From the NCBI GenBank assembly GCA_965215265.1, contig OZ244048.1, positions 3,040,001 through 3,104,000 on the forward strand: a stretch of DNA of 64,000 nt, in the 5' to 3' direction. The position numbers were made by a program, and so were the translations under genes. Of the stretch, positions 43,768 through 57,885 are shown piece after piece; positions within the stretch are counted from its first letter, which is position 1, and every line of letters starts with the position of its first letter. The notes beneath the pieces were generated by a model. It worked only from the letters and a program-made list of their open reading frames with translations. It searched no databases and was not told the DNA's origin. Source of the DNA: Candidatus Poribacteria bacterium. GTDB lineage: Bacteria > Poribacteria > WGA-4E > WGA-3G.

Positions 43768-44289
43768 TCAAAAACCTAAATCTTTATCGAGTAATTCTTC
43801 AACAGTCTTTCCCCGTAAGCGTGCTACTTCGTTAATATCCTTAAGGCTTTTCAAACCGAGCATTGTAGCTTCAGCAATGTTTTTCACATTTCGAGAGGAA
43901 AGACACTTCGTTAGTGCATCCCGAACCCCTGCAAATTCGAGGATTGCGCGCGTAGCGTGTCCTGCGATGATGCCGGTTCCAGGGCTAGCAGGTTTCATCA
44001 AAACTTTAGCAGATTTGAATTCGCTGATGATTTCGTGCGGGAGTGTCCCTTCAACAAGTGGGACCCGAATCAGATTTTTGCGTGCGTCAGCAAGGCTTTT
44101 GCGGATAGCTCCAGCAACTTCACTCGCGCTGCCAAATCCGATCCCAACGATGCCATCCCGATTCCCTACAACAGAGAGCGTGTTAAAACTGGGGGTCCGT
44201 CGACCTTTTCCAACACGCATCACACGGTTAATCGCAATCGGATGCTCATCAAATTCAAAGTCATCAGGGTTAATCTTATCTTTCAGCAA
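43768..44289 (-). CDS. rpsE: 30S ribosomal protein S5
   Basis: INRV..V.KG.R, PA.PGTGIIAG, and position in the spc operon. Confidence 0.96.
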   Translation of the reverse strand: MLKDKINPDDFEFDEHPIAINRVMRVGKGRRTPSFNTLSVVGNRDGIVGIGFGSASEVAGAIRKSLADARKNLIRVPLVEGTLPHEIISEFKSAKVLMKPASPGTGIIAGHATRAILEFAGVRDALTKCLSSRNVKNIAEATMLGLKSLKDINEVARLRGKTVEELLDKDLGF

Positions 44290-53526: not shown

Positions 53527-54726
53527 TTATTCGAGAATTTTGGAGACAACACCTGCCCCGATAGTATGTCCGCCTTCCCGGATTGCGAATCGAAGTTGCT
53601 CTTCCATAGCAATCGGTTTGGACAACTCGACCGTAATTTGCGCGTTGTCACCAGGCATAATCATTTCAATGCCTTCAGGCAAATCCATTCTACCGGTCAC
53701 GTCCGTTGTCCGGAAATAGAATTGTGGGCGGTATCCGCTAAAGAAAGGGTTCCAGCGTCCCCCTTCTTCCTTAGTCAGGATGTAAGCTTCGGCTTCAAAC
53801 TTTGTATGTGGCGTAACAGTTCCAGGGATTGACAAGACCTGTCCGCGTTCAACTTCATCTCGGTCTATGCCTCGCAGTAAAGCCCCGATATTATCGCCTG
53901 CTCGTCCTTCATCTAGAAATTTTCGGAACATCTCAACCCCTGTTACAACAGTGGTTTGTGTGTCGCGGAGTCCGACAATTTCGACATCATTTCCGACGTT
54001 AATGATTCCGCGTTCAACGCGTCCGGTGACAACAGTGCCGCGCCCACTGATCGTGAAAATGTCCTCTATCGGCATCAGAAAAGGCTTTTCAGTATCCCGG
54101 ACCGGTTCCGGAATGAATTCATCAACGGCTTCCATTAAATCAAGGATAGGCTTACATTCGTCGCTTCCTGGATCGCCGGCAGATTCCATCGCTTGAAGTG
54201 CAGAACCTGCGATAATAGGGACGTCGTCGCCTGGAAATTCATACTCTGACAGCAATTCCCGTACTTCCAATTCAACGAGTTCAATCAGTTCTTCGTCGTC
54301 TACCATGTCTGCCTTATTGAGGAAGACTACGAGAGACGGCACGTTGACCTGGCGTGCAAGTAGGACGTGCTCACGAGTTTGTGGCATCGGTCCATCTGCA
54401 GCAGAGACAACCAGAATCGCGCCATCCATCTGTGCAGCCCCGGTAATCATGTTTTTGATATAGTCAGCGTGTCCGGGGCAATCGACGTGTGCATAGTGGC
54501 GGTTCTCTGTTTCGTACTCAACGTGTGCTGTGTTAATAGTAATACCACGTTCTTTTTCCTCTGGTGCTTTGTCAATTTCGTCATAGGTCATGACGTAGTT
54601 TTTATTAGCAAGATTCGAAAGTACCATGGTAATTGCGGCGGTGAGAGTCGTCTTCCCATGGTCAACGTGGCCGATAGTTCCAATATTGACGTGTGGCTTA
54701 GTCCTTTCAAACGTTTCCTTAGCCAT
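53527..54726 (-). CDS. tuf: Elongation factor Tu
   Basis: [21 protein letters not shown] and [14 protein letters not shown]. Confidence 0.99.
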
Positions 54727-57020: not shown

Positions 57021-57491
57021 TTACCACCGGTAATGTGCGAAGGCTCTATTGGCTTCTGCCATTCGATGCTGTTCCTGTTTACGGCGGATTGCCCCGCCAT
57101 CGTTTTGTGACGCGTCCATCAATTCACCAGCAAGGCGTTGTGCCATGCGTTTCTCGCCGCGTGCCCGTGCAGATTGAATAATCCAACTAAAAGCGAGCCG
57201 GATTTTGCGTTCGGCCTTGACATCAATAGGAACCTGATAGGTTTGGCTGCCGACGCGCCGCGGGCGAATTTCTAACGCTGGTTTGACATTGTTAATTGCT
57301 TTCTGGAACACAGCGAAACCATCTTCCTGGGTCCGCTCTCCAATTATCTCAAAACTCTCATACAGGATACGCTGCGCAGTGCTCTTCTTCCCATCCAACA
57401 TGAGACTGTTGATAAATTTTGATACAAGCTTACTGTTGTAAGTTGCATCCGGGGTAACATCGCGCTTGGTAACGTTTCCACGTCTCGGCAT
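57021..57491 (-). CDS. rpsG: 30S ribosomal protein S7
   Basis: MPRR, DGKKS.A, TYQVP and MAEANRAFAHYRW; ATG at 57491. Confidence 0.98.
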   Translation of the reverse strand: MPRRGNVTKRDVTPDATYNSKLVSKFINSLMLDGKKSTAQRILYESFEIIGERTQEDGFAVFQKAINNVKPALEIRPRRVGSQTYQVPIDVKAERKIRLAFSWIIQSARARGEKRMAQRLAGELMDASQNDGGAIRRKQEQHRMAEANRAFAHYRW

Positions 57492-57516
57492 CTCTTTTTC
57501 CTCCGCGGAGTGTGCC

Positions 57517-57885
57517 TTATGGCTTTCGTGCTCCGTATTTTGAGCGTCCCTGCCGGCGGTTGTCAACACCTGCCGTATCCAACTTGCCACGAACGATGTG
57601 ATAACGAACGTTAGAAAGATCTTTTACGCGGCCGCCTCGTACTAAAACGACTGAGTGCTCTTGCAAGTTGTGATCTATGCCCGGAATATAACAGGTTGCC
57701 TCATAGCCAGAAGTAAAACGGACCCGGGCGACTTTGCGCAAGGCCGAATTTGGTTTACTCGGCGTTACCGTTTTTACCTGTAAACAGATACCACGACGCT
57801 GTGGGCACTGCTGAAGCACAGGTGACTTTGTCTTCTTCCGGTACTTTTTGCGCGGTTTTTTAATTAACTGGTTAATTGTTGGCAT
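57517..57885 (-). CDS. rpsL: 30S ribosomal protein S12
   Basis: [26 protein letters not shown] and RSKYG; ATG at 57885. Confidence 0.98.

Follow-up and report, generated by a model that had tools for sequence, protein, structure and literature searches.

In textbook accounts of the decoding centre, Lys43 and the Pro91-Gly92 pair of ribosomal protein S12 are invariant. To our knowledge, changes at these residues are known almost only from drug-selected mutants, often with a cost. At position 88, K88R is a classic streptomycin-resistance allele. Asn is the best substitute for Gly in left-handed turn conformations, and nucleotide 13 of the 16S rRNA has a direct role in streptomycin binding. The decoding lysine (K42 in mature E. 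coli numbering) is bound to streptomycin by two hydrogen bonds and to the A913 phosphate by a salt bridge; K42R keeps this bridge and is non-restrictive, while K42A and K42T lose it and are strongly restrictive (PMC2916820). Streptomycin-exposed Erwinia gave K43N/R/T, K88R/T, P91S/T/L, G92C and G92D, with P91L and G92D being drug-dependent (PMC11471933), and paromomycin selection in Streptomyces coelicolor yielded P91S (PMC6784132). On the rRNA side, C526 and G527 are touched by streptomycin, and mutations of the pseudoknot make M. tuberculosis resistant and Thermus drug-dependent (PMC10525438). Residues 912-915 form the streptomycin-binding 915 region, where mutations lower binding (bioRxiv 10.1101/2021.09.14.460364). 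Nucleotides 13 and 20 are placed in a conserved base triple with 914 in the text of PMC3914948, with a figure legend naming A915-U15-U20, so that the numbering is inconsistent within the source.

A natural precedent is described in archaea. In PMC8570412 the decoding lysine is called nearly invariant, with Arg in thermophilic archaea as the sole exception; the survey covers archaea and eukaryotes, with E. coli as an outgroup. The natural Lys-to-Arg exchange is tied there to higher accuracy, and it is hyperaccurate in E. coli and hypoaccurate in yeast (PMC8570412).

The window analysed here, the whole stretch of 64,000 nucleotides, comes from Candidatus Poribacteria, which we take to be mostly uncultured sponge associates. 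Its S12 is substituted at three of the four streptomycin-resistance positions (K43, P91 and G92), and K88 is unchanged. The features concerned are as follows.

57517..57885, minus strand: rpsL (uS12), 122 amino acids plus stop, protein P0001, sole copy in the genome
57757..57759, minus strand: rpsL codon 43, AGT = Ser, replacing a near-universal Lys (K42 in mature E. coli numbering)
57610..57615, minus strand: rpsL codons 91-92, TCT AAC = Ser-Asn (91 at 57613-57615, 92 at 57610-57612), replacing Pro-Gly
57619..57624, minus strand: rpsL codons 88-89, K88 (AAA) and D89 (GAT, 57619-57621), both kept
57021..57494, minus strand: rpsG (S7), directly downstream of rpsL; PF00177, 205.8 bits
54806..56902, minus strand: fusA (EF-G), next gene of the str operon; 698-aa open reading frame, assigned from sequence and position
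53527..54726, minus strand: tuf (EF-Tu), Pfam match
43768..44289, minus strand: rpsE (S5), PF00333 and PF03719
44197..44211, minus strand: S5 codons 27-31, G-K-G-R-R, second loop Gly replaced by Arg

A profile search identifies the protein as S12 (PF00164, 116.4 bits, cut-off 22.3), and it matches a solved S12 chain with E = 4.7e-59. Residues 1-122 align without a gap to residues 1-122 of solved bacterial S12 chains, which carry K43 and P-G at 91-92; the position numbering of the original prediction is thus correct. Written out, the substituted motifs are TPSKPNSA and [10 protein letters not shown]. The gene stands in the standard order rpsL-rpsG-fusA-tuf (S7 and EF-Tu by Pfam, EF-G by open reading frame and position). 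A second, canonical rpsL copy is ruled out by the single PF00164 match in the 4.83 Mb single-contig genome.

The three residues are confirmed at their codons from the bases of the window and from independent assemblies. Contigs from four runs of four separate studies span the whole 501-base stretch around rpsL. They differ at three sites only, all synonymous Pro codons (28, 42 and 68), and are identical at codons 43, 91 and 92. S43, S91 and N92 are also present in the genome of the sister species G001. The assumption that sequencing error is unlikely therefore holds, the same codons having been found in four studies and in a sister species. It had been reasoned that K43S and G92N each need two base changes. 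This is correct, and the relatives carry the one-step residue N43 (AAC or AAT).

We searched 176 Poribacteria species genomes and read S12 in all 171 with a match. The labels f1 for the family of the window, g1 for its genus, and so on are those of this analysis. Position 92 is N in 169 genomes and G in 2. Position 91 is S in 116, P in 42 and A in 13, and position 43 is N in 77, K in 76, R in 12, T in 4 and S in 2. S43 is found only in genus g1, in both of its genomes and always as AGT. This codon is one transition from AAT and two steps from AAC, the N43 codons of the neighbouring genera. K43 is kept in families f2 and f4 and in all deep lineages. The combination R43, R88, A91 and N92 occurs in 12 genomes, ten of them in genus g5 of f1 and two filed under f3 (G064 and G066). 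S12 identity within the order is 79-98%. The idea of a feature peculiar to one genome thus fails, since N92 is nearly phylum-wide, S91 extends over several families and S43 is a genus-level state. Two further peculiarities of S12 were seen in the phylum. The protein of family f8 (L129, L131-L136) has R88 together with Gly at 94 (V-G-Y, not V-R-Y) in the same loop, and that of genus g3 (L016-L024, L026) has a one-residue insertion, reading TSSADEAT against TSGYEAT in neighbouring genera.

A scan of one genome per species gave 80 S12 loci, 78 from other phyla and two titled Candidatus Poribacteria; the latter two, close to the window's S12, coincide with G013 (f1) and G081 (f3). K43 is found in all 78 genes from other phyla and P-G at 91-92 in 77, the remaining one having G-G. 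These counts bear out that the residues are near-invariant in bacteria. We also scanned metagenomes for DNA encoding K-D-L-x-N-V-R-Y-H and obtained 67 stretches, 38 of them S12 and 29 other open reading frames. The 38 N92 S12 genes are 71-97% identical to the protein of the window, and in an S12 tree all 38 fall on the Poribacteria side of one branch against the 78 outgroups. No N92 S12 outside the Poribacteria side was found among these 38, a result that is weak evidence with a FastTree of 120 columns. N43 is present in five of them, all at 94-97% identity, and K43 in the other 33. A non-Lys residue at 43 is thus confined to close relatives of the window, because only metagenome genes of 94-97% identity have N43.

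The order of events was followed on two trees. The first was built with IQ-TREE from S7 together with residues 1-330 of EF-G (54 genomes, 468 columns, rooted on f10/f11, 37 of 51 inner branches starred), and it is independent of S12 because it rests on these neighbouring genes. The fewest changes on this tree are six at position 43, four at 88, five at 91 and two at 92. N92 is ancestral to the phylum. The G92 residues of G044 and G049 look like reversions because each is nested inside an N92 clade, and two base changes would be required for each. Family f1 forms a single clade (100/99) with N43 almost throughout, and N43 turned to S43 in the genus of the window (100/99). Five K43 genomes of genus g5 form a clade (96/86) nested among N43 lineages, most simply explained as a return to Lys. 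T43 in G086, R43 in G018 and R43 in G064 have separate origins; G064, filed under f3, is placed as sister to f1 (96/90). The second tree, a FastTree of S12 only, is made of 284 sequences (168 from Poribacteria, 78 from outgroups and 38 from metagenomes) and 120 columns after removal of the trait columns, with three Poribacteria rows dropped for X or length. Its counts are higher, with ten changes at 43, eleven at 91 and three at 92. The observation is real, natural and rare, and the substitutions are an inherited lineage trait, not a one-off mutation.

These proteins can be set beside the known rpsL mutants. The laboratory and clinical mutants of E. coli, Salmonella, Mycobacterium, Erwinia and Streptomyces concern the same protein and the same four positions, and share N43, T43, R43, R88 and S91 with Poribacteria. 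However, those mutants are single, recent, raised under drug and often costly or drug-dependent, whereas in Poribacteria several changes are combined, fixed at levels from species to phylum and joined by changes in 16S. Two steps are needed for S43 and for N92, and neither allele is named in the portions of the streptomycin-mutant literature that we compared. The archaeal case (RPS23 K60R) is alike in that the same lysine is naturally replaced, recurring independently, and R43 is found in 12 Poribacteria. In PMC8570412, however, Arg is called the only naturally selected alternative, whereas in Poribacteria a bacterial family has N, S, T and R and mostly not the charge-keeping Arg.

The same pocket is changed on its 16S rRNA side as well. 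The single 16S match of the window's genome lies outside the window, at 2037862-2039412 of the contig. It has A where the Rfam consensus has a C of the 530 loop, which is position 526 by alignment to E. coli K-12 rrsH. This A526 stands opposite G505, and position 915 is G. G527, G530, C912-A914, C1407-C1409 and G1491-A1493 are canonical. Position 526 could be read in the 101 of 176 Poribacteria genomes in which the 530 loop is assembled, and it is U only in 90, A in 4, C only in 5 and both C and U in 2. The A526 holders are the genus of the window, G064 and G172, all with S43 or R43. C526 alone is found in all four genomes of genus g8 and in one fragmented assembly, and both genomes with C and U are fragmented assemblies. 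In a sample of Acidobacteriota, 91 of the 92 genomes with a match have C526 and one has U (two unpublished genomes are included, both C); C526 is also found in seven further diverse genomes. As a separate observation, the fragmented assemblies G131, G142 and G088 hold extra 16S fragments with canonical C526. Three of these fragments have CTCC, as in non-Poribacteria, at the site that is CTAC or CTGC in Poribacteria, and bin contamination is therefore their probable origin.

The 505-526 pair covaries. Among 97 Poribacteria genomes it is A-U in 75, G.U in 17, G.A in 4 and G-C only in 1; genus g8, with G-C, was missed by the pair pattern because of a one-base insertion. We further aligned the 16S of 26 Poribacteria and 10 outgroups to that of E. 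coli K-12. A13 and A18 are present in 26/26 Poribacteria and U917 in all 25 that cover the site, whereas the outgroups have U13 in 10/10 and C18 and G917 in 9/10. C20/G915 replaces U20/A915 in most Poribacteria; G063 and G043 keep U20/A915, and G057 has U20 with G915. When the first 21 of the 26 were considered, 24 of 804 outgroup-invariant columns differed in at least 90% of Poribacteria, and positions 13, 20, 526 and 915 are among them. We consider these four pocket sites among 24 an enrichment, an argument that was framed after seeing the data, and the pocket changes may be part of a general divergence of the 16S. Strict covariation of N92 with position 526 is rejected: genus g8 and G043 pair N92 with canonical C526, so the link between S12 and 16S is loose. 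Of the two G92 genomes, 16S is available for G049, which has C526.

The known 16S resistance alleles of the 530-loop pseudoknot and of 912-915 concern nucleotides 526 and 915 as well. In Poribacteria, unlike in those mutants, the changes are the wild type, the 505-526 pair is partly compensated (A-U in 75/97), and positions 13, 18, 20 and 917 are changed along with it. Poribacteria 16S have been listed with two or more mismatches against the 926R primer set (bioRxiv 10.1101/2020.11.09.375543). Given where the 926R primer binds, these mismatches fit G915 and U917 and are independent support for them. The preprint treats the mismatches as a coverage problem, and its passage on them draws no link to S12, streptomycin or decoding. 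Two other features of the rRNA genes were noticed. In helix 44, immediately beneath the decoding site, the genus of the window carries G1412 and A1487, against C1412 and G1487 in most of the other aligned Poribacteria. Between the 16S and 23S of the window's genome, outside the window, there are four tRNA matches (L112, positions 840-1383), and the usual number in this spacer is one or two.

D89 is the residue that RimO modifies in organisms that have this enzyme, and the original prediction had supposed that this modification may be affected. The remark holds in a stronger form. No RimO (TIGR01125, cut-off 356.95) was found in the window's genome, where the best matches reach 275 and 257 bits and the two radical-SAM relatives are assigned to MiaB (484 bits) and MtaB (437 bits); nor does any match pass the cut-off in the 158 genomes searched in families f1-f4, so that the order of the window is without RimO. 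Matches over the cut-off are found in 14 of the 176 Poribacteria genomes, all in f5 and f7-f11. Absence of RimO is not rare in bacteria, since only 6 of 14 control genomes pass, and its loss may be unrelated to the S12 changes. Resistance of the rsmG-loss type, which had also been proposed for inspection, is ruled out by the presence of rsmG (gidB) in the window's genome (138.7 bits, cut-off 99.5).

The S5 loop reads G-K-G-R-R in the window, against R-K-G-G-R in other Poribacteria families and V-K-G-G-R in Bacillus. The Gly-to-Arg change is present in 10/10 f1 genomes, that of the window included, and G-G is kept in 20/20 of the non-f1 genomes read, with one locus unread. It does not track position 43, because it is present in f1 genomes with K43 and N43 alike. 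We take this loop glycine to be the site of an E. coli error-prone, spectinomycin-resistant mutant. In a strongly conserved stretch of EF-Tu, GGRWNPFF stands in place of the GGRHTPFF of the best solved relative, with His changed to Trp and Thr to Asn.

We read these data as a single working rpsL that takes part in a long-standing remodelling of the S12/16S streptomycin pocket in which protein and rRNA co-evolved, with its residues being lineage traits of different ages; on the evidence of comparative sequence we give this reading a probability of about 0.7. N92 is a state ancestral to the phylum, and the turn tolerance of Asn may explain why G92N was tolerable. S91 is common to several families, N43 dates from the base of f1 or close to it, and S43 is derived from N43 in the genus of the window. 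On this reading the S12 changes belong to a joint remodelling of the contact between S12 and 16S helices 1, 18 and 27. The putative 16S partners are A13, C20/G915, A18-U917 and the 505-526 pair as A-U, G.U or, in the genus of the window, G.A. The site in question is the streptomycin pocket, together with a portion of the latch by which the 30S subunit is closed as it decodes. The original prediction of a natively rewired decoding centre gains from the 16S changes at 13, 20/915, 18/917 and 505/526 and from the f1-wide change of the S5 loop; what does not survive is its confinement to a single genome.

With Ser at 43 the bridging Lys side chain is lost, as judged by sequence only, as it is in error-restrictive S12 alleles. 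In an E. coli context Ser43 should behave like Ala or Thr. The ribosomes of this lineage are most likely insensitive to streptomycin, because the bridging Lys is gone and drug-contact nucleotides are changed. Their decoding set-point would probably be re-balanced by the rRNA and S5 changes and not left strongly restrictive; that these particular changes offset the restrictive effect of S12 is conceivable, though we hold it with less than even confidence. For resistance and fidelity alike, we infer the behaviour of these ribosomes from that of other species.

As to why the pocket was remodelled, we lean towards stepwise compensated change in slow-growing organisms and regard drug selection as a live alternative. 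In the former case, under weak selection on translation speed, mildly harmful S12 and 16S changes would have been fixed and then compensated, which would have opened routes barred to other bacteria, with streptomycin insensitivity as a by-product. We hold this tentatively. It accounts for the paired changes, from C18-G917 to A18-U917 and from G505-C526 through G.U to A505-U526, and for the states at 20/915, which mostly move together except in G057. The 24 normally invariant 16S positions that differ, several of them as apparent pair swaps, the back-changes at 43 and 92 and the lost RimO point the same way. However, S12 is otherwise highly conserved in the phylum (79-98% inside the order), so this gene is not decaying, and the repeated, coupled set of R43, R88 and A91 suggests specific selection.

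That same set, in genus g5 of f1 and in two genomes filed under f3, is among the points in favour of selection by antibiotics. Here streptomycin-like aminoglycosides of the habitat would repeatedly have selected S12 and 16S alleles, and position 43 would toggle with intermittent pressure. This is possible, if rather unlikely in our judgement. N43, T43 and R43 (with S reached via N), K88R and P91S match laboratory streptomycin sites or alleles in PMC11471933 and PMC2916820, positions 526 and 915 of the 16S are drug-contact or resistance sites, and at least six changes occurred at 43, including the apparent return to Lys. Yet the residues seen at 43 are also the viable ones that lie a single step from Lys, and their spectrum may reflect function. 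Should the drug already be blocked by older changes in 16S, it could not have selected the later ones at 43, and K43 is kept in f2, f4 and all deep lineages. The old changes alone do not free position 43, because deep lineages with N92, A13 and G915 keep K43. Position 43 must have been opened by some factor peculiar to f1 and part of f3, since f2, f4 and the deep lineages share the signature and yet have K43.

A third account, which we find unlikely, is that a different set-point of accuracy and speed was selected, with the S5 and rRNA changes as counterweights. The natural archaeal Lys-to-Arg exchange is linked to higher accuracy in PMC8570412, K42A and K42T are restrictive in PMC2916820, and the loop Gly-to-Arg of S5 in f1 falls at the site of the E. 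coli error-prone mutant. The S5 change, however, co-occurs with K43 as well as with N43, and the effects of such alleles differ between species, as with the hyperaccurate E. coli and hypoaccurate yeast ribosomes of PMC8570412. A bolder combination seems comparably improbable to us: a re-engineered decoding latch made of S12, 16S helices 1, 18 and 27, S5 and the loss of RimO, on which the toggling among K, N, S, T and R in the order of the window, the return to K included, would record a long arms race with a streptomycin-like compound of the habitat, as a counterpart in nature to the resistance evolved in laboratories at the most conserved site of the ribosome. An artefact, a contaminating gene or a recent spontaneous mutant of one strain can be set aside with near certainty, given the same codons in contigs of four studies, the same residues in the sister species, states that track phylogeny over 171 genomes and a single-copy gene within a normal operon.

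By titles and the beginnings of abstracts, we found no literature that treats S12, rpsL or streptomycin targets in Poribacteria. With the present data, the few natural replacements of the decoding lysine come to include a bacterial phylum and residues besides Arg, and candidate compensating partners go with them. A phylum has long lived with Asn92, and in one family the lysine is replaced in most species, with matching 16S changes. Such natural, putatively pre-compensated cases could tell which partner changes make restrictive-type S12 alleles tolerable. They predict intrinsic streptomycin insensitivity in a major uncultured group, which would be relevant to attempts at enrichment and culture, and they offer a functional reading of the known 16S primer mismatches of Poribacteria.

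Single natural departures at the same S12 positions were also met elsewhere in bacteria. R88 (RDLPGVRY) is present in all six S12 loci titled as Planctomycetota lineages (L058, L065, L096, L102, L107 and L108) and in 10 of the 78 non-Poribacteria loci overall. Judged from sequence, it may have a bearing on the streptomycin tolerance of planctomycetes. N, S, T or R at position 43 was sought in 401 genomes from the phylum to which a Rhodospirillales genome belongs, with two 20-base patterns, which proved too loose, a reversed control also matching often. They matched 100 places (38 and 62). We read the 40 that code for P-x-K-P-N-S/T-A; the 60 left out, which include the candidate G686, mostly have no Ser at the PNSA serine or repeat a 20-mer that lay outside S12 in the examples read. 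One of the 40 is a genuine S12, that of G501 (L423, C27), which has R43 with canonical P-G and is a rare natural Lys-to-Arg exchange at 43 in a bacterium outside Poribacteria.
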